Shown: positions 2,810-18,241 of the stretch, in pieces
How the letters are laid out: the number at the start of each line of letters is the position of its first letter
How positions within the stretch are numbered: position 1 is the first letter of the stretch
Assembly: GCA_965140785.1 (NCBI GenBank)
Contig: OZ223481.1
Span: 64,001-128,000, forward strand
DNA: 64,000 nucleotides
Direction of reading: 5' to 3'
Source: an uncultured Ruficoccus sp.
Lineage (GTDB): Bacteria; Verrucomicrobiota; Verrucomicrobiia; Opitutales; Cerasicoccaceae
Translations under genes and position numbers: made by a program
The notes under the pieces: model-generated
Databases searched by the model: none
What the model was told of the DNA's origin: nothing
The model's input: only the letters and a program-made list of their open reading frames with translations

Positions 2810-3301
2810 TTATTCGCTGCCGACGCGAAAGCGGTAGGTGCGGATGGGCTTGGGGGCAGCGTTGAGGGAAATCTGGAAAATCTTGACCTCGCCGTCGATC
2901 AGGTCCTCGCCCCCACCGAAGCCGCCGGTGATCTTTTTCGCCTCCAACGCCACCGGGTCGGCGTATTTGGGCGTCATGACGATTTTTTCCGGCGTGAGCT
3001 CCATGCGTTCATCTTTTCCCGCATCGGGATTAATATAAATATTGATGGTAAGATCCCCGGTAGCCGGAGCTCCGCCAATCCCTACCTCAGTAGCCTTCCC
3101 CCGCTGGATGATGACTCGAACCGGAACCTCCACCAGCTTGCCCGACTCGTCGGTAAAGGCGCAGACCCCACCGTAAGCGCCCGCCCAAGCTGCCAGATAG
3201 GGGCGCATCGGCGCGTCGTCCTTCGAGCCGGACGACGACTGGGCAGCAAGCGGGGCGGCCAGACACAGGCAGGCGGCCAGGAAAGCGGGGAACCATTTCA
3301 T
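2810..3301 (-). CDS. hypothetical exported protein
   Basis: ATG at 3301 gives the signal peptide MKWFPAFLAACLCLAAPLAA. Confidence 0.6.
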   Translation of the reverse strand: MKWFPAFLAACLCLAAPLAAQSSSGSKDDAPMRPYLAAWAGAYGGVCAFTDESGKLVEVPVRVIIQRGKATEVGIGGAPATGDLTINIYINPDAGKDERMELTPEKIVMTPKYADPVALEAKKITGGFGGGEDLIDGEVKIFQISLNAAPKPIRTYRFRVGSE

Positions 3302-3564
3302 GCTCCACCGGATACGTGATCCCGGTCTCCAAGGCAAGCACTACCACCGCTCACGCAAAATGCGGTTTACGGTTTTTCCACCGATTTCACCGATGAGGGC
3401 AGGTTACCCCTGGGGGGAAGCGCTATCCACAATCATCCATGTCTGAAAATCACTTTAACCAAGATGCCAAGCGATAGATCAAAAACTCGTCCGACGGCCC
3501 ATGGCATTTCCCACACGAAATGCCATCCCGATGCGAAGCATCGAGGGTCCAGGGCATGCCCTGG

Positions 3565-4413
3565 TTAACGGAAGAGCAGGACGGGAATACGGCAGCGGCG
3601 CAGCAGGTCGCTGGTGGTGCTACCGATGATCAACTGGCGGATGCGGCTGTGGCCGTAGGCACCCATCACGAGCAGGTCGGCCTTGCTGTCCACCACGTAG
3701 TCCTCGATCGAGTCCTCCACATTGCCGGTAAGGACCTGGGTGATCACGTTGAAACCGGCGGCCTTAAGCGTCGGCTCGGCCTTGGCCACGTTACCGGAGG
3801 CTTCACCCTTGCCGTGACCCTCGCCCACGCAGACCAGGTGCAGTTCGAGCCCTTGCAGGAGCTTGCTGCGGCACATCCAGTCCAGAGCCTTGGTGCAGCT
3901 CTCGCCGCCGTCATAGGCGAAAACCACCCGCTTGATCTCGCGGTACTCGCGGTTGGTGACCAGACAAGGTTTTTGGCTGGCACGCACCACACGCTCCATG
4001 TTGTGCCCGAGGTGCTCCATGGCCGCCTCAGCGTTCTCGCCGCGCTTGCCCAGGATGATCATGCCGGCTTCCTGCTCCTCGTAGTCCTCAATGGCATCGA
4101 CGAGCAGCCCGGTCTCATGATGAAACTCGACGGTACAGTCCACCCCGGCGTCGGCGAAGACTTTCAGCCCGTACTCCTCGATCATGCCCGCCTTTTGCTT
4201 CTCGATCTCGTCGAGCTGGCCCATGACGGCGGTATAGGGCGAAGCCCCGAGGCTCGCCCCCAGGTCCATGAGGAAGGGCGCTTCGTATTCGCGCAGGTTG
4301 GAGACGTAGAGGAGGTCCACCTTCGCGCCGGTGCGCCCGGCAGCCCAGGCGGCGTAACGACAGGCAGTTCCCGAGTAGGCGGAACCATCCGTGCACAAGA
4401 GCAATCGCTTCAT
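3565..4413 (-). CDS. universal stress protein (tandem USP domains)
   Basis: 'LLLCTDGS', 'VVFAYDGG', 'LLVMGAYGHSRIRQLIIGSTT'. Confidence 0.9.
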   Translation of the reverse strand: MKRLLLCTDGSAYSGTACRYAAWAAGRTGAKVDLLYVSNLREYEAPFLMDLGASLGASPYTAVMGQLDEIEKQKAGMIEEYGLKVFADAGVDCTVEFHHETGLLVDAIEDYEEQEAGMIILGKRGENAEAAMEHLGHNMERVVRASQKPCLVTNREYREIKRVVFAYDGGESCTKALDWMCRSKLLQGLELHLVCVGEGHGKGEASGNVAKAEPTLKAAGFNVITQVLTGNVEDSIEDYVVDSKADLLVMGAYGHSRIRQLIIGSTTSDLLRRCRIPVLLFR

Positions 4414-6612: not shown

Positions 6613-8451
<1,839 letters not shown>

Positions 8452-8463
<12 letters not shown>

Positions 8464-8476
8464 ATTTCCTATAACA
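8452..8476 (+). repeat. left attachment site (core repeat plus attP half-arm)
   Basis: ACGGTGGAGTAGATTTCCTATAACA; restores the glmS ...TVE* end. Confidence 0.9.
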
Positions 8477-8862
8477 AAAAGGGATTGGGGAATCCTTATC
8501 TCTTTTACGGCAACGCTCAAGACCCAGCGACTGTCGGTCAACTACGTCGGGAACAAGCGTACGTGTCGCCAAACACTTATCATTGAGCTACATAGTCAAG
8601 GACTCAATGACCGTCAAATAGCCGATCACCTGAACGGATTGGATATTACCTCACCTACAGGGAAAAGGTACTATCCTGAGCTTGTATTCGCTGTTCGTAA
8701 AAAGCTAAAGGCACGCCAGCAGAGACTTGAGGAATCAAAGCTATCCATTGGGAAAATGGACATTTGTAAATTAATTGTAAAAAATAAAGAAATGCGATAA
8801 ATTTTCAAAAAAACCCAAAATCCGGAATCGAGGCCTATAAATACTAGTAAAAGGGCCCAATA

Positions 8863-9336
8863 ATGACTTCGGATAGTATACGCAATGCAACCAGATTATT
8901 CCTAAATAGTAGGATAGAAGACTATTCAAATTGCATAGCTCTCACCTTAACGATGAAACAATATTCAGGGGGCTTTAAATTAGACGAAGTGCGTGCCAGC
9001 AAGGACTTTAGGCACTTCATGAATATACTAAATAAGAAGACATTTGGCAAGGCTTTTCAACGTTTCGGGAAACGAATATCAGTCGTACCAGTGATGGAAA
9101 ACTCAGAAAACGAACGTCTGCACTTTCATGCCTTACTTCAATGCCCTGATAAATACTCTTGGACTGCGGGCCAGGCCATTTTTGCGCTAAAAGCACAGTC
9201 TTTATGGAAAAAGACACACTTTGGATATGACCAAACGTCCAGTCGGTTGGCGGCCGACAAAGGCTGGACGGGTTACATAACCAAACTCAAAGGACAAGCC
9301 GATCAGATAGACTGGGAAAATTTCCACTGGAATTGA
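8863..9336 (+). CDS. small HUH endonuclease / rolling-circle replication initiator-like protein
   Basis: Motifs in RCR order: 'ALTLT' (I), 'RLHFHALL' (II, HUH), 'YITK' (III, YxxK). Confidence 0.75.
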   Translation: MTSDSIRNATRLFLNSRIEDYSNCIALTLTMKQYSGGFKLDEVRASKDFRHFMNILNKKTFGKAFQRFGKRISVVPVMENSENERLHFHALLQCPDKYSWTAGQAIFALKAQSLWKKTHFGYDQTSSRLAADKGWTGYITKLKGQADQIDWENFHWN

Positions 9337-9554
9337 CGGGTATAAACCCCTTTTCCATTTCCGAGTAGCATATCAAGGAGCGAAATAGCCCCTTGATACT
9401 TTGTTATATACAGAAACAACAAATTCCTAGAGTATATAATATCCTATATGTCAAAGAATAAAGTTATTCAGACAGTACACAGAGTTCTCCTAAGATAATT
9501 CTGATTCATATCTACAAAGGGATGCCGCAAGGCATCAGGCATCTTGATGCCTTC

Positions 9555-9791
9555 TCAAGGTTCCACTACTGGATCCAAGTCCTCCAGTTCCTTGATTATC
9601 TCTGACGGGAAACAGTCAAGAGCCCGAGCAATCAAGAAAATCGTAGTCAGCGTTGGCTGAAATTTACCGTTCTCGATTTCAGACAGGAAACTTCGGTCTA
9701 TCCCTGCCCGTTCGCACAGGCTATCCTGCGAAAGCTTCAACTGACTCCTTCTGCGAGCGATTACACGGCCAAATGCATGCTTAATATCCAA
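9555..9791 (-). CDS. XRE-family HTH regulator resembling restriction-modification controller (C) proteins
   Basis: 'LSQDSLCERAGIDRSFLSEIENGKFQPTLTTIFLIARAL'. Confidence 0.85.
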   Translation of the reverse strand: MDIKHAFGRVIARRRSQLKLSQDSLCERAGIDRSFLSEIENGKFQPTLTTIFLIARALDCFPSEIIKELEDLDPVVEP

Positions 9792-9821
9792 GCCATGATT
9801 ATAAAAGATTTACATTGGCCA

Positions 9822-9845
9822 ATCTGTAGGATATATCCTACAGAT
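9822..9845. promoter_or_regulatory. perfect 24-bp palindromic operator candidate
   Basis: ATCTGTAGGATA|TATCCTACAGAT between the divergent HTH gene and the DUF4352-like gene. Confidence 0.7.
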
Positions 9846-10316
9846 AATAAACCGATGCAGTAACGCACTCTAGTCACTTAACCCATCACTAAAAACATGC
9901 CCGAGACAGACGTCCCTCACCAATCGAAGAAAAAGAAAAAGAAAAATGGCTGCATGATCGCCATCATAGCCGTTGCAGTAATCGCCATTCTAGGAATTGG
10001 TGGATTCTTGGTAGTAGGCGGTTTGTTCGTGACCGGAGCCGCAGTAGCTGTCGATCAAGCCATTAAAGAAGAAAACCGTATTCCAGAAGAAATCTTGCCC
10101 CTCGATGGATCAACACAAACCGGCGAATACGAGATTACGGTCTATGATATCCAAGAATTTGCGTCAGTCGGCAATGAATTCTACTCAGTACAAGCCTCCG
10201 AAGGTGCCACATTCGTAGCCGTACTTTGGGGCTATAAAAACACGACAAGCTGACCGTGTCCACTTAAACTGTGCCACTTGCAAAGTTAGTCTGAGTGCTT
10301 AGAAAGGACTCAGACG

Positions 10317-10583
10317 ATGAAAGGCAAGCGATACAGTACAGAGCAAAAAATCCGCATTTTACGCGCCGCTGATGCTGGCAGAGCGATCGTGGATGTCTGC
10401 CGCGAGGCAGGGATCAGCGAGCAGACGTTCCACCGCTGGAAGCGGGAGCTTGGGATGCTGGAAGTCGATCAGGCCAAGCAACTGAAGGAACTGCAAAAGG
10501 AGAACGCTCGGCTGAAGCGTATGCTGGCGGACGAGATACTTGGTAAGGAGCTGCTGAAGGAGGCGCTCGAAAAAAAATGGTAA
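10317..10583 (+). CDS. IS3 transposase OrfA
   Basis: HTH 'VCREAGISEQTFHRWK' plus leucine zipper; ends in an A8 run (GAAAAAAAATGG), a -1 frameshift window. Confidence 0.92.
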   Translation: MKGKRYSTEQKIRILRAADAGRAIVDVCREAGISEQTFHRWKRELGMLEVDQAKQLKELQKENARLKRMLADEILGKELLKEALEKKW

Positions 10584-11557
10584 GCCCTGCACACAAGCGC
10601 GAGATGGCGCAAACTCTGGTGTCGCAGGGCAGATGTTCAGCGCGGGCGGCCTGCCGTCACTTTGGGTTGCATCGCAGTACCTTCGGCTATCAGGCGAAGG
10701 AGACTACGCCCTGGTTGGCAAAGTTACGTGGGGCTTTGCGTCGCAAGAGCGAAGCGCATCCCGAGCTGGGTTACCCGAAAATCACTCATCTACTCAAGCG
10801 CGATGGTTGGGACGTAGGTAAGCGGCTGGTGCAGCGCCTGCGCCAGGAGATGGGGCTGAAGTGTCCGACTAAGAAGCCTCGTCAGCGTCGGCGCGGCCCC
10901 TCGACGGGCTTACCGACAAAGGCTACTCATCGCAACCACGTGTGGACCTGCGACTTCGTGGCCGACCGTACGGCTAAGGGCGGATCAATCCGCATGCTCA
11001 CGGTACTCGATGAGTACACCCGTGAGTGCCTGTGCATCCACGTCGATCGCCACCTCAACGCCGCCAAGGTGCGAGCCGTCATGAGCGAGTTGATCAGTGC
11101 CTACGGCAGCCCCGAGCACATCCGTAGCGACAACGGCAGCGAGTTTATCGAGAAGAGCCTGCGTAAATGGTACGCGGACGAGGAGATCAAGACGCTCTAC
11201 ATTGAGCCGGGCAGTCCCTGGCAGAACGGCTACATAGAATCCTTCAACGGCAGACTCCGCGATGAGTGCCTCAACCGCGAGTGGTTTTATACGCTCACCG
11301 AGGCACGCGTGGTCATTGAGGACTGGAGGTGGAAATACAACAACATCCGCCCGCACCGTTCACTCGGACTGCTCACGCCGCTCGAGTTTGCAGCCAAAGA
11401 AACCGCACCAACCCCCTTCGACATCAACTTCCAAGGCATGGGCTACACTCGGGCTACGCCCTCCTTGCGCCCAAGCCTTGACACCCTCTACAACCTAACC
11501 CTAAATCACATCATTAACCCGCTCAGACTAACTCTCAATGCGGTACAGTTTGCGTAG
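10577..11557 (+). CDS. IS3 transposase OrfB (DDE integrase core), -1 frame relative to OrfA
   Basis: 'WTCDF', 'IRSDNGSEF', 'PGSPWQNGYIESFNGRLRDECLN', 'YNNIRPHRSLG'. Confidence 0.95.
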   Translation: MVSPAHKREMAQTLVSQGRCSARAACRHFGLHRSTFGYQAKETTPWLAKLRGALRRKSEAHPELGYPKITHLLKRDGWDVGKRLVQRLRQEMGLKCPTKKPRQRRRGPSTGLPTKATHRNHVWTCDFVADRTAKGGSIRMLTVLDEYTRECLCIHVDRHLNAAKVRAVMSELISAYGSPEHIRSDNGSEFIEKSLRKWYADEEIKTLYIEPGSPWQNGYIESFNGRLRDECLNREWFYTLTEARVVIEDWRWKYNNIRPHRSLGLLTPLEFAAKETAPTPFDINFQGMGYTRATPSLRPSLDTLYNLTLNHIINPLRLTLNAVQFA

Positions 11558-12151
11558 GCAGGTCAAAGCACTCCAATCAGTTCTTTTGATGCCCCACGCA
11601 TAGAGCTGATTTCGCCTGACCTAGCTCGTTACGATCCAGCCGTGGGAGCTAGTAGTGCCCTTGCCTCGACGATTGATGGCCTGAACCAAAAGGCGCTGAG
11701 TGACATCAATCCAGGTATCAGCGTCAAGACAGTAGACGTATTTGAGCTCAGCCAAGAGCTACTCCAACAACCAGGTTGGACGCTTTTGATCAAGGCCGAC
11801 GAGAAAATTCGACTCAAATTAAATTAACCCAAATACACTACGAGGGCCGATAAGCAAACCTCGGAACAAGTAGTCGCAATGTATGCTGGGGTCAAATCTT
11901 GGGCTAAAAGGCGAAACAATTTAAGAATTATCGCCCGAAGGCACAAAGTCCGTCCCAATCAGACGCAAGAATGCGATGAGCATTCTTGCGTACGGATCCT
12001 AGTCCTCAAAAGACTAACAATATCATTTACCCTAAGCCGTTATGAGACCGATACCGTGCAAGTAAGCAGCAACCCTGCATGACAATTGCGAGCTAATACT
12101 CATCAAATAAAATATTGTATCAATCAATATCTATGGCTATCGAATGTCTTC

Positions 12152-14773
12152 ATGAGCAAGACACCTGTATACGTATTTTTGAGCTACTCCCATCACGACG
12201 AGGCACTGCTAGAATGCTTTAATACACAAATCGCCCCACTTACTCATGCCCTAGATCTAAAAATTTTCTATGACAGAAAAGTACATGCCGGAAAATTATT
12301 CTGGGAAGAAATAGACAAATCCATCGGCGAATCAGACATAATCATTTTATTCATTAGCGCCAACTACTTGGCATCTACATCTTGTAGAAAAGAGAAAGAC
12401 ACCGCCTACCAACTAAACAAAGACAATGGCACCATAGTCATACCTATAATATTATCAAAATGCGGATGGGCAGACGATCCAATACTAAAGAAAACATTAA
12501 ATATCCCTACTGACGGGAAACCAGTATTGGATTTCAACAACAAGGAGGATGCATGGCATGATGTTTATGGACACGTAAAACCATTAATGGAAACAGCCTC
12601 TTACGTTAACAATCTCAGACACACCGAACACACCTTACACTGGCTAGAAGATGTTGAGCTTTTAACTCAAAGCCATCCAAGGGTTGGGCAACTACGACTT
12701 CAAGATATCTATGTCGATCCTGAGCTAGAACTCTACGATGATCTAGGAGACTACACGAGCAGCGTGCAATCTGATACCATACTAGATAAAATAAAGTCAA
12801 GAAAGGGAGTAATAATATCTGGCGATGACCAATCTGGAAAAACTTGTTTATGTAAAAATATCTACAATCTATTCGCCAAGAATGGCTATATACCAGTTTA
12901 CGTAAATGACAAAATAAATAAATATAGTGGAAATATAAGCACATTAATATCAAACGCAATTAATGACCAATATATTGATGCCGACAAAGGCATAATTCCC
13001 AAGGAAAAAATTGTATTAATAATCGATGACTTTCACGCCTCAAAACACAGACAAAAAATCGTTGATCAGCTTGAAAACTTTCCACGTAAAATCTTAATAG
13101 TAGACGATATATTCACTATAAATCTACGGGAAGAACTACTCGTTGATGACTACATCCGCATGTCCATTAAGGAATATAAGCCATCATTACGTTATGAAAT
13201 AATACGCAAATGGGTGAACGTTACAGGCGATAAAAATCAATCCACACTGCAAGATATAGAGGCCTACAAAAGACTAGATGAAGGCTATCAATTTATTAAT
13301 GAAACCCTTGGAAGAATATTAGGCGACGGCATAGTTCCGTCATATCCATTCTTCATAATAACCATTCTCAGTGAACAAGATTCATTTGGCACAAAGACCA
13401 CAGAAGAAGTTTCATCTCAAGGGCATTGCTATCAAGCACTTATATACATACACCTAAGAAAGAATGGCGTAAGCAACGAAGACGTTGACTCACACATAAA
13501 CTTCCTAGCAGAATTTGCTTATTACCTCTTTAAAAATAAATTAGAATCTTTAGACAAAAGTGGGTTTGATGATTTTTTTGAAGATTATACAGATAAGTAC
13601 ATTCCGCCAGACAAGCCAGAAACGACACTAGATACACTTATACGTTCAAACATCATACGTTCTGATAGCTTTTCTCATTACTCATTTAGATATCCATATA
13701 TCTTCTACTATTTCATTGCTAAATACCTATCCGACCACATCACCGAACGCTTTGATACGATTACTACAATCGTAGACCATCTGCACGAAAATCAAAATGC
13801 TTACATATCCATATTTTTAGTTCATCATAGCAAAAAGCCTGAGTTGCTAAATTTATTAATGGATACAACAAAAAACCTTTTCACAGAATATAAACCAACT
13901 GGGCTATCTCGATCTGAAATCATGAGCCTTGACAGGGAATTATCGGATTTGGTCAACCAAAGACTTCCATCTCCAAACGAATCGGTAGATGAAAATAGAA
14001 GAAGGAAACTAGAAGCTGAAGATGAATTAGAAAATTCAATAAAGCAAAACCAACGTGACAATGAAGACTCCACTAATCAATATGCCGATGGCGACGACAC
14101 CAAGGATGACGCAGAAATATTGATAAAAGACCTAAGAAAAAGCATTAAAACAGTCGAAGTACTCGGTCGGATAATAAAGAACCGTCATGGATCTCTGAAA
14201 ATTGATATACTGGAACAAGTATTTCAAAATGCAATGGAAGTACACCTAAGAATTTTGACCTCTTACCTAAAAGTCATAGAGAGGAGTGAAGGATCCGATT
14301 CAATCATTTCTTTCCTAGTTGATAGGCTAAAGAATATCACAAATAAAGGCAATAAGCATTACACCGACACGCAGCTAAAGGATATGGCGAGAACAATATA
14401 TTGGAATTTTAATCTTATCCTTATACATGCGATATTTGTTAAAATAGTCCAGTCTCTAGGAGCAGATAAACTCAGAATGATTGTAGAGAACGTATGCCAA
14501 AGAGATCCAACACCTGCTAAATCAATCATTAAGCATGGCATCCTCATGTGGTATTCTAAATCCTTACAGATCGATGAAATTGAAAAAGATTTCATCAATC
14601 TTCCATTCTCGAAGGCAGCGAAAAGAGTAATGAGACTTTTCGTCATTAATTACTGCAGAATGCACTCCATTAATTTCAAGGACAGGCAGAGACTTGAGTC
14701 AAAGCTCGGGTTCTCTTCAAAGCGACTACTGAATGAATCTAACAGCATTAGGCCTGAGAACAAAAAATCCTAG
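12152..14773 (+). CDS. TIR domain + STAND/NACHT-like NTPase; putative anti-phage defence protein
   Basis: TIR 'VFLSYSHHD...ISANYLASTSCRKE'; Walker A 'SGDDQSGKT'; Walker B 'IVLIIDDF'; WHD-like 'YSFRYPYIFYYFIAKYL'. ATG at 12152 preferred to the TTG at 12086. Confidence 0.8.
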   Translation: MSKTPVYVFLSYSHHDEALLECFNTQIAPLTHALDLKIFYDRKVHAGKLFWEEIDKSIGESDIIILFISANYLASTSCRKEKDTAYQLNKDNGTIVIPIILSKCGWADDPILKKTLNIPTDGKPVLDFNNKEDAWHDVYGHVKPLMETASYVNNLRHTEHTLHWLEDVELLTQSHPRVGQLRLQDIYVDPELELYDDLGDYTSSVQSDTILDKIKSRKGVIISGDDQSGKTCLCKNIYNLFAKNGYIPVYVNDKINKYSGNISTLISNAINDQYIDADKGIIPKEKIVLIIDDFHASKHRQKIVDQLENFPRKILIVDDIFTINLREELLVDDYIRMSIKEYKPSLRYEIIRKWVNVTGDKNQSTLQDIEAYKRLDEGYQFINETLGRILGDGIVPSYPFFIITILSEQDSFGTKTTEEVSSQGHCYQALIYIHLRKNGVSNEDVDSHINFLAEFAYYLFKNKLESLDKSGFDDFFEDYTDKYIPPDKPETTLDTLIRSNIIRSDSFSHYSFRYPYIFYYFIAKYLSDHITERFDTITTIVDHLHENQNAYISIFLVHHSKKPELLNLLMDTTKNLFTEYKPTGLSRSEIMSLDRELSDLVNQRLPSPNESVDENRRRKLEAEDELENSIKQNQRDNEDSTNQYADGDDTKDDAEILIKDLRKSIKTVEVLGRIIKNRHGSLKIDILEQVFQNAMEVHLRILTSYLKVIERSEGSDSIISFLVDRLKNITNKGNKHYTDTQLKDMARTIYWNFNLILIHAIFVKIVQSLGADKLRMIVENVCQRDPTPAKSIIKHGILMWYSKSLQIDEIEKDFINLPFSKAAKRVMRLFVINYCRMHSINFKDRQRLESKLGFSSKRLLNESNSIRPENKKS

Positions 14774-14930
14774 TCTTATCAAAAACCTCTCGTGATCCTT
14801 GATTATAGAATATAAATTCCATAACCAGTTACATAACCCATTGGCCACCATCCACTTATTTTAAGCCTTTTTATTTTACGCCCAGCACTGATTATATTAT
14901 ACTAATATTATCATAAAAAATAATCAGTAG

Positions 14931-15530
14931 ATGGCCCTTGGTAAGCAATCAAAGACACTTTCGAGCAAGCAGATCGATGCGATAAGTACCTACCTGCGGA
15001 ACCGCAGAAATGGGATACGAAACAATGCAATCTTCCTTCTCTCGGCCAAAGCCGGACTCCGTGCCAAAGAGATAGCCAATTTAAGATGGTCAATGCTCGT
15101 AGACGCTGATGGCCGCCTAACCCATACCATCAGCCTCACCGATAGCGCAGCCAAAGGTAGCTCTGGACGGACTATCCCCATGAATAAGACCGTGTATGCT
15201 GCCCTAGATGAGCTACTCCACATCGAACAGCCGATAGATGGCTTCACGATACAGACTTCATACGTCGTACGGTCTGAACGTTCGGACAGAACAAGCCCGC
15301 AGGTCATCGTCAATATGTTCCAACGCTGGTATCGAGAGCTTGGCTTCATTGGCTGTTCCTCTCATTCTGGGAGACGAACCTTTATCACCAACGTTGCCCG
15401 AAAAATAAGCCTAGTTGGGGGCTCTATACGTGATGTACAGGCCATCGCTGGGCATAAGCACCTCCAAACCACCCAACGTTACATAGAATGCGACTCTGAG
15501 TCTCAAAGAAAGGTAGTAGACCTTGTCTGA
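14931..15530 (+). CDS. small tyrosine recombinase (catalytic domain only)
   Basis: 'AGLRAKEI' (R), 'HSGRR' (HxxR), 'AGH', 'TTQRY' (Y); 199 aa with no N-terminal arm- or core-binding domain. Confidence 0.88.
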   Translation: MALGKQSKTLSSKQIDAISTYLRNRRNGIRNNAIFLLSAKAGLRAKEIANLRWSMLVDADGRLTHTISLTDSAAKGSSGRTIPMNKTVYAALDELLHIEQPIDGFTIQTSYVVRSERSDRTSPQVIVNMFQRWYRELGFIGCSSHSGRRTFITNVARKISLVGGSIRDVQAIAGHKHLQTTQRYIECDSESQRKVVDLV

Positions 15531-17157
15531 AATACTCCACATCTACACTCGGGTCAGTACCCAAGCTCAAAAGGAAGACGGAACCTCTCTCGACTCGCAG
15601 AAAGAGCAAGGAATCAAAAAGGCAAAAGGGCTGGGGTTTGAATATCGTATTTGGAATGAAGGCGGGCGATCAAGTAGCCATGATGACTTGAGCAACCGGC
15701 CAATCCTAGCATCTCTTCTGGATCACGTTGAAGCCAAGGGAGTAAAGCACCTTTGGGTTTACAACACCGACAGGCTCTCACGGAACGAGAACACCTGGAG
15801 CATGATACGCCTAAGCTTGGTCAAGAACGCAGTCACTCTCTACACGAACTCCGGCCTCTACCAGCTATCAAATGAAAGCGATAAATTAACCCTCGGGTTC
15901 CTTTCGCTAATAAGTGCCTATGAAAATACACTTAGAACAGAAAGAACAAGAACAGGCAAAGTCCAGAGGATCAAAGAAGGCTACTGGATGGGCGGCCCCC
16001 CTCCATATGGGTACAAGCTCATAAGCAAGAAGCTAGAAATCGACCCAGATGAAGCTAAATGGGTGAGATTCATCTTCGAGCAGTTCAGCAAGGGGCAGAC
16101 CGTCAGATGGATACGAAATAAGCTTCTTGAAAACAAGGTGATGACACGGCGGAAAAAGCCTATCTGGAGCCTTGGGTCCATAGAAAAATTGCTAACCAAT
16201 ACGCATTACGGCGGAAGCTACACCTACAAAGACAATAGAGACGATAATGTACACACGAGCGTCTGCCCTAGCCTACTGCCTGCCACGCTGATTATTGAGG
16301 CACAGAAAGAGAAGAAGCGGCGGTCAAAATTCAGGGCAAAAGAAAGCAACCAGAAACATTTCTACCTCCTGCGAGGCTTACTTCGGTGCGATCATTGCGG
16401 GGCACACTTCTCCGCTAGACGGTACGCAGTCCAAAAGCGCTCTAGCTACTATTGCCCCAGAAAGGAAAGAAATTACGCCAATGCCCCAGAGCGATGCGAT
16501 AACAGTAGATACCTGAAAATCGAAGAAACCGATGCCCTCATCGTAAGCACAGTAAAGGAAGTCTTGGCCAACTCGGGCCTATTCAAGCAGGAGATACGAG
16601 ATCATTACCTACAGCAGAATCAAGAGCAGCTACCCAGCAAGGACGATAGACGAAAAATCAAAGCCCGGATTAGGACACTTACCAAAGACATCAATGATAT
16701 CCGGTCCAAAATAACCATACTGGAGGCAGATCATCTACTTGAGAAGACAAGCAACACTCGCCTCAGCTTCATGAAAGTCATATCCGAGATCCAACGCCGG
16801 ATGCTGGTTGCCCAAGCGGAAAAGGAAAAGCTCGAAGAGACTTTGTATAATTTTGACCACCAAGAGCAGTTAAGTGATTGGTTTACAAAATATTCAGAAA
16901 GACTCAATGAGTTGGATGACATGACCGAGAAAGAATGCCAAAACTTTCTTAAAGGCGTTATCGAGTATATTTCAGTGCGCACGATCGATAAGAGGACACA
17001 CCAACTTAAAATCAAATTCCACTTACCGTACGTTAACGGTTATTTAAATCCCAATCAGTCCAACGAAGCAAACAAAGGTCCAGAGGCATCAACTGTAAAA
17101 ACACTGACCGTTGAGACTAAAAAAAAGCCCACAAACAAAACGCTTCAGCCGAAATAA
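15523..17157 (+). CDS. large serine recombinase (integrase)
   Basis: 'IYTRVST' catalytic Ser, 'DRLSR', 'PPYGY' recombinase domain, Zn ribbon 'CDHCG...YYC...C', coiled coil; TTG start overlaps the upstream stop. Confidence 0.93.
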   Translation: MSEILHIYTRVSTQAQKEDGTSLDSQKEQGIKKAKGLGFEYRIWNEGGRSSSHDDLSNRPILASLLDHVEAKGVKHLWVYNTDRLSRNENTWSMIRLSLVKNAVTLYTNSGLYQLSNESDKLTLGFLSLISAYENTLRTERTRTGKVQRIKEGYWMGGPPPYGYKLISKKLEIDPDEAKWVRFIFEQFSKGQTVRWIRNKLLENKVMTRRKKPIWSLGSIEKLLTNTHYGGSYTYKDNRDDNVHTSVCPSLLPATLIIEAQKEKKRRSKFRAKESNQKHFYLLRGLLRCDHCGAHFSARRYAVQKRSSYYCPRKERNYANAPERCDNSRYLKIEETDALIVSTVKEVLANSGLFKQEIRDHYLQQNQEQLPSKDDRRKIKARIRTLTKDINDIRSKITILEADHLLEKTSNTRLSFMKVISEIQRRMLVAQAEKEKLEETLYNFDHQEQLSDWFTKYSERLNELDDMTEKECQNFLKGVIEYISVRTIDKRTHQLKIKFHLPYVNGYLNPNQSNEANKGPEASTVKTLTVETKKKPTNKTLQPK

Positions 17158-17159
17158 GC

Positions 17160-17196
17160 TGTTATAGGAAATCTATATTACCACGGTGGAGTAGAT
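17160..17196 (+). repeat. right attachment site (attP half-arm plus core repeat)
   Basis: TGTTATAGGAAATCTA-TATTACC-ACGGTGGAGTAGAT. Confidence 0.9.
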
Positions 17197-17670
17197 GTGA
17201 TATTTAAGAGTACTGTGGACGTACTCATTCCGGCCTTGGCGTTTGCTATCCCCGCCATCATCTTTTTTCTGTATCTGGCGTCGATCTACCAGTGCGCCCA
17301 ACATAGGCAGGGGTACTTGGCGGCGGGCATAGCTGGAGTTGTGCTCATTGGGGCGATCTACGGAACCTACAAGCTATCCTGGACCGCTGCCGAGCTGACG
17401 ACCAAAACCAAATTCATGGCGAATGCCCGACGCAACCTATACCTGGGCTTTTACCACCTTCAACAAGATATGGAGGCTGGGAAAACGGGACTGGCTCAGG
17501 CAAAAATCAACTACTTGGTGGCGAAATGGGATGGGGTACAATACTTTAACGAAGACGGCGGCAAGTCCCTGAATAAGCTGACTGAAGCTCTCATGAGCAC
17601 TCCTCCCAAGGAATTTATAAACCAAGCGACCGAGACTGAAATCCCTGAAAGTAAAGACAACACGCCGTAG
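17197..17670 (+). CDS. hypothetical membrane protein (neighbour of glmS before the insertion)
   Basis: GTG start immediately after the right att repeat; two hydrophobic helices. Confidence 0.55.
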   Translation: MIFKSTVDVLIPALAFAIPAIIFFLYLASIYQCAQHRQGYLAAGIAGVVLIGAIYGTYKLSWTAAELTTKTKFMANARRNLYLGFYHLQQDMEAGKTGLAQAKINYLVAKWDGVQYFNEDGGKSLNKLTEALMSTPPKEFINQATETEIPESKDNTP

Positions 17671-17693
17671 CCTTGCAGCACGCCCGGTGAAGC

Positions 17694-17728
17694 TTGACAA
17701 AACCACACACGTACAGCATCCTGTCCAC
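17694..17728 (+). promoter_or_regulatory. putative promoter of the yefM-yoeB operon (possibly leaderless)
   Basis: TTGACA (17694), 17 bp spacer, CATCCT (17717), 6 bp, ATG; overlapped by GTACAG..CTGTCC, which resembles a YefM operator. Confidence 0.5.
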
Positions 17729-17980
17729 ATGAGAGCCATCACGTACACGGCGGCGCGGGAGAATCTGGCTGCGACCATGCAGGATGTCTGTGACAGCCGG
17801 GATGCGGTCATCATTACCCGCAACCGCAATCAAGCCGTGGTTATGCTGGCGCAGGAGGAGTACGAGTCGCTGATCGAGACCGCGCACTTGGCCAGCTCTC
17901 CGGCCAACGCCCGCCGTCTGCTCGACTCCATCGCAGCTCTGCGCGGCGGGAAAGGCACCGCGCACGAACTCAGCGAGTAG
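17729..17980 (+). CDS. yefM: Phd/YefM antitoxin
   Basis: 'ITYTAARENLAATMQDV...IITR...EYESLIETAHL.SSPANARRL'. Confidence 0.92.
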   Translation: MRAITYTAARENLAATMQDVCDSRDAVIITRNRNQAVVMLAQEEYESLIETAHLASSPANARRLLDSIAALRGGKGTAHELSE

Positions 17981-17986
17981 CTCGCC

Positions 17987-18241
17987 ATGAGGATCGTTTT
18001 CTCCGAGCAGGCGTGGGAAGATTACCAGTACTGGGTCGCGACGGACAAAAAAGTCCTCAAGCGCGTCAACCTGCTCATCCGCGACTGCCTGCGGGAACCC
18101 TTCGGCGGGCTGGGCAAGCCCGAACCACTCAAGCACCAGTTCCAGGGCTTCTGGTCGCGGCGCATCACTGGGGAGCACCGGCTGGTGTACACGGTCGAAA
18201 ACGGGGATTTACTCATCGCGCAGGTTCGGTTTCACTACTAG
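17987..18241 (+). CDS. yoeB: Txe/YoeB toxin
   Basis: 'AWEDYQYW', 'GLGKPEPLK', 'WSRRITGEHRLVY', 'RFHY'. Confidence 0.95.
   Translation: MRIVFSEQAWEDYQYWVATDKKVLKRVNLLIRDCLREPFGGLGKPEPLKHQFQGFWSRRITGEHRLVYTVENGDLLIAQVRFHY

Follow-up and report, generated by a model that had tools for sequence, protein, structure and literature searches.

The large serine integrases of the phiC31, Bxb1 and A118 type need only 2 bp of crossover identity within a symmetric site of about 50 bp, whereas tyrosine recombinases use an overlap region of 6–8 bp. Where large DNA has to be inserted at a defined site, serine integrases are the principal tools. In this study, a natural locus of this kind was analysed in a window of 64,000 nucleotides (the whole stretch of DNA examined: assembly GCA_965140785.1, contig OZ223481.1, positions 64,001 to 128,000 of the forward strand) of an uncultured Ruficoccus sp. 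(Verrucomicrobiota, Opitutales, Cerasicoccaceae). A low-GC island of 8,731 bp (8454–17184), with a direct repeat of 14 bp and a perfect inverted repeat of 16 bp at its ends, is located at the end of the glmS gene. Judging from its attachment (att) sites and those of its relatives, the island was very probably inserted at glmS by its own large serine recombinase (15523–17157), with crossover at the dinucleotide AC. The locus resembles large serine integrases of phages and islands (phiC31, Bxb1, A118 and TP901-1) in its three-domain enzyme, its attP of about 50 bp and its inverted half-sites, and it shares with the phiC31 type a non-palindromic 2-bp crossover, sequence identity that extends down to the dinucleotide and an integrase gene placed beside attP.

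A second group of relevant systems is that of the "suicidal" tyrosine integrases of the SSV1 type. In these, attP lies inside the integrase reading frame, integration splits the gene, the whole protein is encoded only by the circular form, and length variations of the att sites are compensated against frameshifts (PMC8371274). A sequence-only reading of the window had proposed the attP/attB pair of the island. The pair is supported by the present analysis, which adds a feature that had gone unseen, namely that a recoded integrase extension appears to enclose attP.

The island and its attachment sites

The glmS gene (glutamine-fructose-6-phosphate aminotransferase; 6613–8463, + strand; Pfam SIS 3.2e-52, GATase_6/7) ends with the codons T-V-E-stop (8452–8463), which are now supplied by the island. 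The 14-nt sequence ACGGTGGAGTAGAT is present at 8452–8465, with a second copy at 17183–17196, and the 16-nt arm TGTTATAGGAAATCTA at 17160–17175 is the 100% complement of 8461–8476. Joining 17160–17184 to 8454–8476 gives a 48-bp attP with the layout 16+7+2+7+16, the exact centre of which is AC (17183–17184, equal to 8452–8453), with three inner bases per side being symmetric. The base preceding AC is C at 17182 and G at 8451; as the preceding bases differ at the two junctions, the identity with glmS starts at AC. The symmetric 48-bp attP, its 16-bp arms, its central AC and the onset of glmS identity at AC, all of which had been claimed from the sequence alone, are therefore present.

Within the integrated copy, attL (8433–8476, + strand) consists of the host half-site in glmS, AC (8452–8453) and the P' half-site of the element with its outer arm (8461–8476), and the left copy of the 14-bp identity block (8452–8465, + strand) begins with the two bases, AC, that alone are common to all related insertions. 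On the other side, attR (17160–17196, + strand) comprises the outer arm of the P half-site (17160–17175), 7 inner bp, AC (17183–17184) and then the original host end of glmS. Since the right half-site of the element brings its own T-V-E-stop, glmS remains intact, as the earlier reading had held, and the codons of the element were synonymous in every case.

A perfect 16-mer inverted pair was observed once in the region 8000–18000, and at least one such pair occurred in only 2 of 300 mononucleotide shuffles (mean 0.007), so that a chance origin is improbable. The 16-nt arm has two occurrences in the entire 4.36-Mb assembly, which are the two island ends. The GC content is 0.35–0.50 between the junctions and approximately 0.60–0.65 outside.

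As regards the reconstructed attB, the sequence to the right of the repeat (17197–17690) is absent from the same-genus genomes searched, which indicates that the right flank of attB past the stop codon is lineage-specific. The closest natural empty glmS site was identified in genome G002, where the match ends after the first 13 nt of the repeat (8452–8464). The symmetry of attB is weak by eye. It counts against the proposed pair that the host half-site in glmS bears, likewise by eye, no clear likeness to the half-sites of the element. The contigs of three sequencing runs from one study contain neither the circle joint (17184/8454) nor the empty-site joint (8453/17185); the joints found lie only inside the IS3 copy described below, and these contigs are uninformative on excision or expression.

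Related elements and the crossover dinucleotide

Serine recombinase homologues were found in 6 of the 401 genomes of an order-level sample (E<=1e-40), the source genome of the window included, and the enzymes of the other five genomes share 97, 91, 47, 45 and 37% identity with the integrase of the window. All five also contain glmS. In the window and in four of these genomes, glmS and the integrase share a contig, with the integrase 5.6–9.3 kb downstream, and in the remaining one (G003) the two ends are on two contigs. For the comparison, the element of the window was designated G000, other genome-borne elements were given G numbers, loci on contigs L numbers and database proteins P numbers. 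The attR sites were read after each integrase stop and the attL sites after each glmS; L039 is a metagenome contig that holds both ends of a shortened element. The same type of attL junction was present in G001, G003, G166, G364 and G136, as well as in L033 and L035–L039.

The stretch shared by attL and attR is 14 bp long in G000, 13 bp in G001, 12 bp in G003, 8 bp in both G166 and L039, 3 bp (TAC) in G364 and 2 bp (AC) in G136, and the intersection of the identity blocks over these seven elements is AC only. Each element has a 48-bp site of the 16+7+2+7+16 layout centred on AC, with outer arms that match at 13–16 of 16 bases. In G136 and G364 the T-V-E-stop codons of the host and of the element differ at synonymous positions, and so the two copies must be of separate origin, meeting at AC. 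The dinucleotide constitutes the first two bases of an invariant Thr codon (ACN), three codons before the glmS stop. As AC is the fixed part of ACN, the same crossover dinucleotide can suit hosts that differ in their codon usage.

For this particular copy, we infer that crossover took place at AC too. Weighing against this, the 14-bp identity in G000 alone leaves the crossover unfixed: the junctions are compatible with any of 13 dinucleotides in 8452–8465, and the choice of AC is based on geometry and on relatives with 37–47% integrase identity. Exchange at another dinucleotide inside the block (e.g. GG or GT) is nevertheless very improbable, given that the relatives with 91–97% identical integrases (G001 and G003) already narrow the block to 12–13 bp, and that AC is both the exact 48-bp centre in G000 and each relative and the intersection of the whole family. 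The AC crossover predicted from G000 is supported by the comparison of seven elements, in which AC provides the sole common bases and always occupies the geometric centre.

Further loci were retrieved with an open reading frame (ORF) found at the left end of the island (8456–8800). One metagenome contig (L034) carries an intact attP directly after the integrase gene, and an element near-identical to it (3 nt differences over the left-end ORF) is integrated at glmS in L033. A glmS junction was present in six of the eight metagenome loci found in this way, the other two being the attP form (L034) and an ambiguous one (L040). Moreover, of 150 representatives of the left-end ORF in databases, at least 16 start with the 3' end of glmS in another frame; such extensions, introduced by gene callers, point to further insertions at the same spot. 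A search of the genome contigs with the integrase yielded three distant loci (28–32% identity), which were not used.

Which recombinase integrates the island

The proposed integrase is a large serine recombinase of 544 amino acids (aa) (15523–17157, + strand; Pfam Resolvase, Recombinase and Zn_ribbon_recom; PHROG 95 integrase, 2.2e-81). The resolvase-type catalytic domain PF00239 (1.9e-19) covers residues 7–154 and is followed by PF07508 (5.3e-12, residues 175–266) and PF13408 (3.4e-10, residues 282–344), while residues 364–470 give a sub-threshold match to the coiled-coil family PF05557 (15.7 bits, cut-off 30). Residues R10, V11 and S12 are invariant in 7/7 aligned relatives, the catalytic Ser12 being part of an R-V-S-T motif. 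The protein fits no curated NCBIfam equivalog (CcrB 107 bits with a cut-off of 900, XisF 96 bits with a cut-off of 375), and 2 nt separate the stop of its gene from the attR arm. A recognisable directionality factor was not identified in the island.

Its upstream neighbour is a tyrosine recombinase gene (14931–15530, + strand), the end of which overlaps the integrase start by 8 nt. The encoded protein of 199 aa consists of the catalytic domain only: PF00589 (2.4e-23) spans residues 9–188, and an N-terminal core- or arm-binding domain was not found. The catalytic R-H-R-H/W-Y set is complete, with R44, H145-x-x-R148, H175 and Y184 invariant in 6/6 proteins, and the gene adjoins the integrase in 6/6 genome-borne elements.

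Two-base and three-base identities between attL and attR, as observed in G136 and G364, respectively, are too short for the 6–8-bp overlap of a tyrosine enzyme, and integration is therefore assigned to the serine recombinase. The opposite assignment, with the 199-aa protein and not the serine enzyme integrating the island at glmS, has some points in its favour. Apart from its full catalytic set and its constant position beside the integrase, the tyrosine recombinase is the better conserved of the two (64/64/48% versus 47/45/37% identity), with all catalytic residues kept, and 3' ends of conserved genes are classical targets of tyrosine integrases. This protein clearly does something important, and a part in the events at glmS is possible. 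As the integrase itself, however, it is extremely improbable. The arms are separated by 16 bp with a 2-bp centre and do not flank a spacer of 6–8 bp, and the protein is devoid of a DNA-binding N-terminal domain. In addition, in L034, where attP lies beside the serine enzyme, the 1.5 kb upstream contain no such tyrosine gene, and the sole tyrosine recombinase in L035/L036 is 28% identical and located on the other strand. The earlier preference for the serine over the tyrosine enzyme is upheld by the short identities, by the 48-bp geometry, by the catalytic-domain-only tyrosine protein and by the L034 arrangement.

The third conserved backbone gene (8863–9336, + strand) encodes a Rep-like protein (PF23343, REP_ORF2-G2P). 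It is present in 6/6 genome-borne relatives, the G136 copy scoring under the Pfam cut-off, and the trio of Rep-like protein, tyrosine recombinase and integrase is complete in 6/6 genome-borne elements. The tyrosine recombinase and the Rep-like protein are probably accessory proteins and not the glmS integrase, with roles that may include circle handling or multimer resolution. Candidate roles of the tyrosine recombinase are circle multimer resolution, cargo exchange and directionality. In L034, a small serine recombinase of 200 aa (3618–4220) is encoded where the Rep-like gene would stand, after the left-end (tail) ORF.

A proposed recoded extension of the integrase across attP

Near the end of the integrase gene, a run of eight A residues followed by G (17119–17127, + strand) forms a candidate −1 frameshift or slippage site, which starts on an integrase codon boundary and contains the heptamer A_AAA_AAG (17121–17127). 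An in-phase A-run is present in 8/8 elements (A8 in six, A9 in G136 and A6 in L034), 6–54 nt ahead of the integrase stop, and the heptamer (A_AAA_AAG, A_AAA_AAC or A_AAA_AAA) is phased for a −1 shift. When the element ends were joined in silico, the −1 frame was open over 128–139 codons, from the run via attP to the stop of the left-end ORF, in 7/7 elements, and the other two frames contained 1–16 stops over the same span. The same continuity is present in L034 in the contig DNA as found, with no joining, which makes 8/8 together with the joined elements.

Five elements have 64 nt between the run and AC, and the remaining two have 61 and 87 nt; the 87-nt spacing is matched by a shifted frame of the left-end ORF. 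Such compensation indicates that the continuity is preserved through indels. A −1-frame stop stands immediately before the run in 6/7 of the elements with A8 or A9. In the integrated state the −1 frame runs into host DNA and ends, in G000, after 28 codons. The zero-frame ORF of 544 aa ends 2 nt before the attP arm, and it is the −1 extension alone that integration at attP would split. Among database proteins, P0051 contains the integrase tail (hhalign probability 70%) and a helix-turn-helix (HTH) module (98.9%) in one frame, and the HTH module is repeated in frame in two integrases, 968 and 992 aa long.

Taken from these reading frames, the balance tips slightly towards a −1 shift at A_AAA_AAG which, in the excised circle only, would add an HTH tail to the integrase. 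Several observations weigh against such a shift. No stimulator is present 5–9 nt past the slippery site, the attP hairpin beginning 25–55 nt downstream, and no consistent Shine-Dalgarno-like motif was seen by eye upstream of the A-run. L034 has A6 only together with an in-frame ATG in the left attP arm, and in several database relatives (P0007, P0010 and P0056) the −1 frame has a start that precedes attP. The off-pattern locus L040 has a stop just before the tail ORF. P0051 could be the product of a homopolymer sequencing error; long in-frame relatives of it were not found, which is weak evidence.

The upstream starts in L034 and in the database relatives make independent initiation from the circle an alternative to frameshifting. 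The attP-spanning ORF would then be made separately, by its own initiation on the circle transcript, or else the A-run would be a mere Lys-rich tail and the open frame a side effect, with no integrase–HTH fusion in either case. The in-frame ATG of L034 opens a 117-aa ORF (3157–3510), and the upstream starts of P0007, P0010 and P0056, the lack of a canonical stimulator and the failure to find long P0051 relatives all fit this explanation. We consider it distinctly less probable than the −1 shift, as ATG, GTG and TTG are absent from the stretch separating run and junction in G000, G166, G364 and L039, 8/8 elements have the heptamer in phase, the −1 stop stands right before the run in 6/7 A8/A9 elements, frame compensation accompanies the 61/64/87-nt spacings and P0051 is in frame.

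Some additional features of this region were recorded. In L040 (1–470), an upstream frame with A_AAA_AAG crosses the junction and ends with S-V-T-V-E-stop, and a TGA precedes the tail ORF; this divergent relative, with an upstream sequence of 198 nt only, is possibly a tandem or hybrid site. Transcripts of the circular form are predicted to contain a hairpin of the attP palindrome, with 13–16 of the 16 possible outer-arm base pairs. For the whole folded stretch downstream of the A-run, the predicted free energy is −21 to −42 kcal/mol. Transcripts of the integrated copy are unable to form this attP hairpin. Serine recombinases P0080, P0103 and P0063 (683–992 aa) have four to six or more in-frame repeats of the HTH module at the C-terminus.

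The tail module

The left-end ORF (8456–8800, + strand) is a start-less frame of 114 codons plus a stop, open from the crossover in G000 as in every other element, and encodes a three-helix HTH module. Its first in-frame ATG, GTG or TTG in G000 is located at 8639 (codon 62), with none in the first 61 codons. The ratio of nonsynonymous to synonymous substitution rates (dN/dS) was 0.12–0.18 in the five informative pairs of seven compared, from which it follows that the ORF is coding and under purifying selection. An exhaustive profile search (E<=1e-3) revealed 541 database representatives, the predicted starts of which are scattered over profile positions 9–30, as expected where no true start exists.

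The AlphaFold model of the tail has a mean predicted local distance difference test (pLDDT) score of 63, with residues 33–96 alone being confident; these form three helices. Foldseek comparison with the PDB returned no match at E<=1e-3, only generic HTH look-alikes. According to Pfam, profile comparison and a protein atlas, the tail weakly resembles the helix-turn-helix part of the integrase recombinase domain PF07508; the hhalign probability against the recombinase domain of the integrase itself is 5.5%, which is a lead only. Searches with the tail alignment gave matches in 5/401 phylum-level and 4/401 class-level genomes, all of them previously found. Among viral contigs, 0 of 66 candidates were confirmed with this alignment, and the tail protein had no match in phage and plasmid collections.

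Proposed mechanism

The following sequence of events would account for these features. A dimer of the serine recombinase would bind the attP of about 48 bp, composed of two inverted half-sites, and strand exchange with the glmS end would take place at the central non-palindromic AC. After excision, some ribosomes or slipped transcripts may read in the −1 frame through attP into the left-end ORF. The resulting long isoform of the integrase would possess approximately 135 extra residues ending in the HTH, i.e. a third DNA-binding module. Integration would cut off the coding sequence of the tail, and the long isoform would thus mark the circular state. The favoured proposal is that this isoform biases the enzyme to glmS capture and integration; a reverse or purely regulatory role is also possible.

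In its broader form, the model presents the integrase gene as a state-sensing switch, whose isoforms set the direction of recombination or target capture without a directionality gene, and the family as a portable chassis, made up of the Rep-like protein, the small tyrosine recombinase and the serine integrase, that swaps anti-phage cargo at a site conserved in all bacteria. We would give this broader model an even chance.

A different division of labour is conceivable, in which the serine enzyme exchanges strands at AC but is insufficient and needs a partner from the island, with the circle-specific long isoform, the tyrosine recombinase or the Rep-like protein serving as directionality or accessory factor. 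The conservation of the trio in 6/6 elements, the lack of a recognisable directionality factor, the purifying selection on an HTH tail encodable only from attP, and the poor match of the host half-site to the element half-sites all speak for such a partner. On the other hand, the characterised large serine integrases integrate without accessory proteins, and L034 has no tyrosine recombinase and, within the contig, no Rep gene. Dependence on a partner is accordingly a tentative proposal, which we regard as rather doubtful.

Backbone exchange, cargo and flanking region

Besides the genes discussed above, the island encodes a Cro/C1-type HTH regulator (9555–9791, − strand; HTH_3) and contains an IS3-family insertion sequence (10257–11560, + strand), composed of an HTH_Tnp_1 ORF (10317–10583) and an rve ORF (10577–11557) with imperfect terminal inverted repeats of 39 nt. 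The IS3 element interrupts a backbone ORF that is uninterrupted in G001 (201 aa, weak DUF4352 match), and neither G001 nor G003 contains it. Contigs of the sequencing runs (X1 and X2) showed it in many copies or variants.

The cargo gene of G000 (12086–14773, + strand) encodes a protein of 895 aa with TIR and STAND NTPase domains (Pfam TIR_2, nSTAND), a candidate anti-phage protein. It matches PADLOC PDC-S60 (6.8e-67) and ThsB-like TIR (5.4e-27), and the NCBIfam model DS8_antiphage with 471.6 bits, below the cut-off of 790. Other genome-borne elements carry PDC-S06 (830 bits; G001), PD-Lambda-5 A and B (G003), a type II restriction-modification pair (G136) and a cytosine methylase with a McrB-like N-terminal domain protein (G166); PADLOC models match the cargo in 5/6 genome-borne elements. 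The backbones of G000, G001 and G003 are 90–98% identical over 8400–10250, 11567–11830 and 14802–17193, and the cargo between differs. Homology among the three breaks sharply at 11830 and 14802, with wholly different defence cargo in between; inspection of these two breakpoints by eye revealed no shared motif as a site for the tyrosine enzyme.

These exchanges bear on whether the island is a fixed relic, i.e. an element now immobile whose integrase was once functional. The IS3-family insertion in the backbone and the G004 locus, which keeps an attL-like scar only and no integrase, would suit a relic. We find it unlikely, because both recombinases, the tail ORF and the two att arms have all stayed intact (arms 16/16), near-identical backbones with different cargo exist in three species of the genus, and the same type of element occurs integrated (L033) and as attP (L034) in metagenomes.

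Outside the island, an ORF of 157 aa (17197–17690) adjoins attR; it belongs to no Pfam family and was not found in same-genus genomes. Two adjacent small ORFs (97 and 84 aa; 17687–18241), antitoxin-toxin-like by eye, are kept in G003 and G004. The stretch between glmS and the conserved downstream genes is unlike in every genome of the genus, and looks like a hypervariable hotspot. In G004 (L003, reverse strand, approximately 158–1500), glmS is followed by an attL-like junction with an arm 15/16 identical, past which there are 1.3 kb of unrelated low-GC DNA with one ORF, and neither tail ORF, integrase nor attR arm. This junction is probably the scar of a deleted island.

Significance and comparison with known systems

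No description of a natural glmS-targeting or frameshifted serine integrase was found in the accessible literature; subscription papers and survey supplements were outside its scope, and a prior description is possible. An integrase with a natural target at the glmS end, which is conserved almost universally, would need no pre-placed landing pad in many bacteria. It is noteworthy that near-identical enzymes of this family used host half-sites differing at several wobble and Ser-codon positions, and that the comparative data yield attP, several natural attB variants and the crossover dinucleotide. The tail encoded only across attP is, if true, a candidate answer to the question of how integration or excision is chosen with no recognisable directionality factor. 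In these islands, defence genes (TIR-STAND, PDC-S06, PD-Lambda-5 and type II restriction-modification) are exchanged while the mobile backbone stays constant.

The system differs from phiC31-type integrases in its target at the glmS stop, in an attP placed within a putative −1 extension, in the conserved small tyrosine neighbour and in the lack of a recognisable directionality factor. Like the Ccr recombinases of SCCmec, which act at the 3' end of rlmH/orfX, it sets its cargo into the end of a conserved housekeeping gene, within the last codons, and leaves the frame intact, and CcrB is the top NCBIfam match of the enzyme. Unlike SCCmec, it relies on one recombinase and not on a CcrA/CcrB pair, it has another target, another host range and phage-defence cargo, and it possesses the proposed recoded tail spanning attP.

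The universally conserved C-terminal coding end of glmS is also exploited, as a safe landing site available in many hosts, by Tn7 and by CRISPR-associated transposons. Tn7-type elements, with a DDE transposase and TnsD-type targeting, land past the end of the gene and duplicate the target, whereas here site-specific recombination occurs in the last codons; a Pfam scan of the island found no Tns genes.

The candidate recoding site has parallels in the −1 frameshifting of dnaX and IS3 and in slippage on A-runs, given the same heptamer, the right phase and a start-less downstream ORF that the shift alone would reach. Unlike in dnaX and IS3, there is no stimulator at the canonical distance, and the downstream ORF is at the opposite end of the integrated element.

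With the SSV1-type integrases (PMC8371274), the locus shares a gene that would be complete only in the circle and lengths that are compensated, here at spacings of 61, 64 and 87 nt. The SSV1-type enzymes are tyrosine recombinases from viruses and plasmids of archaea, and their main ORF is split, whereas here the enzyme is a bacterial serine recombinase with an intact core of 544 aa, and only an optional −1 extension would be split. In summary, the att pair fits the known large serine integrase type, and it is the putative recoded tail spanning attP, together with the conserved tyrosine partner, that sets this system apart.

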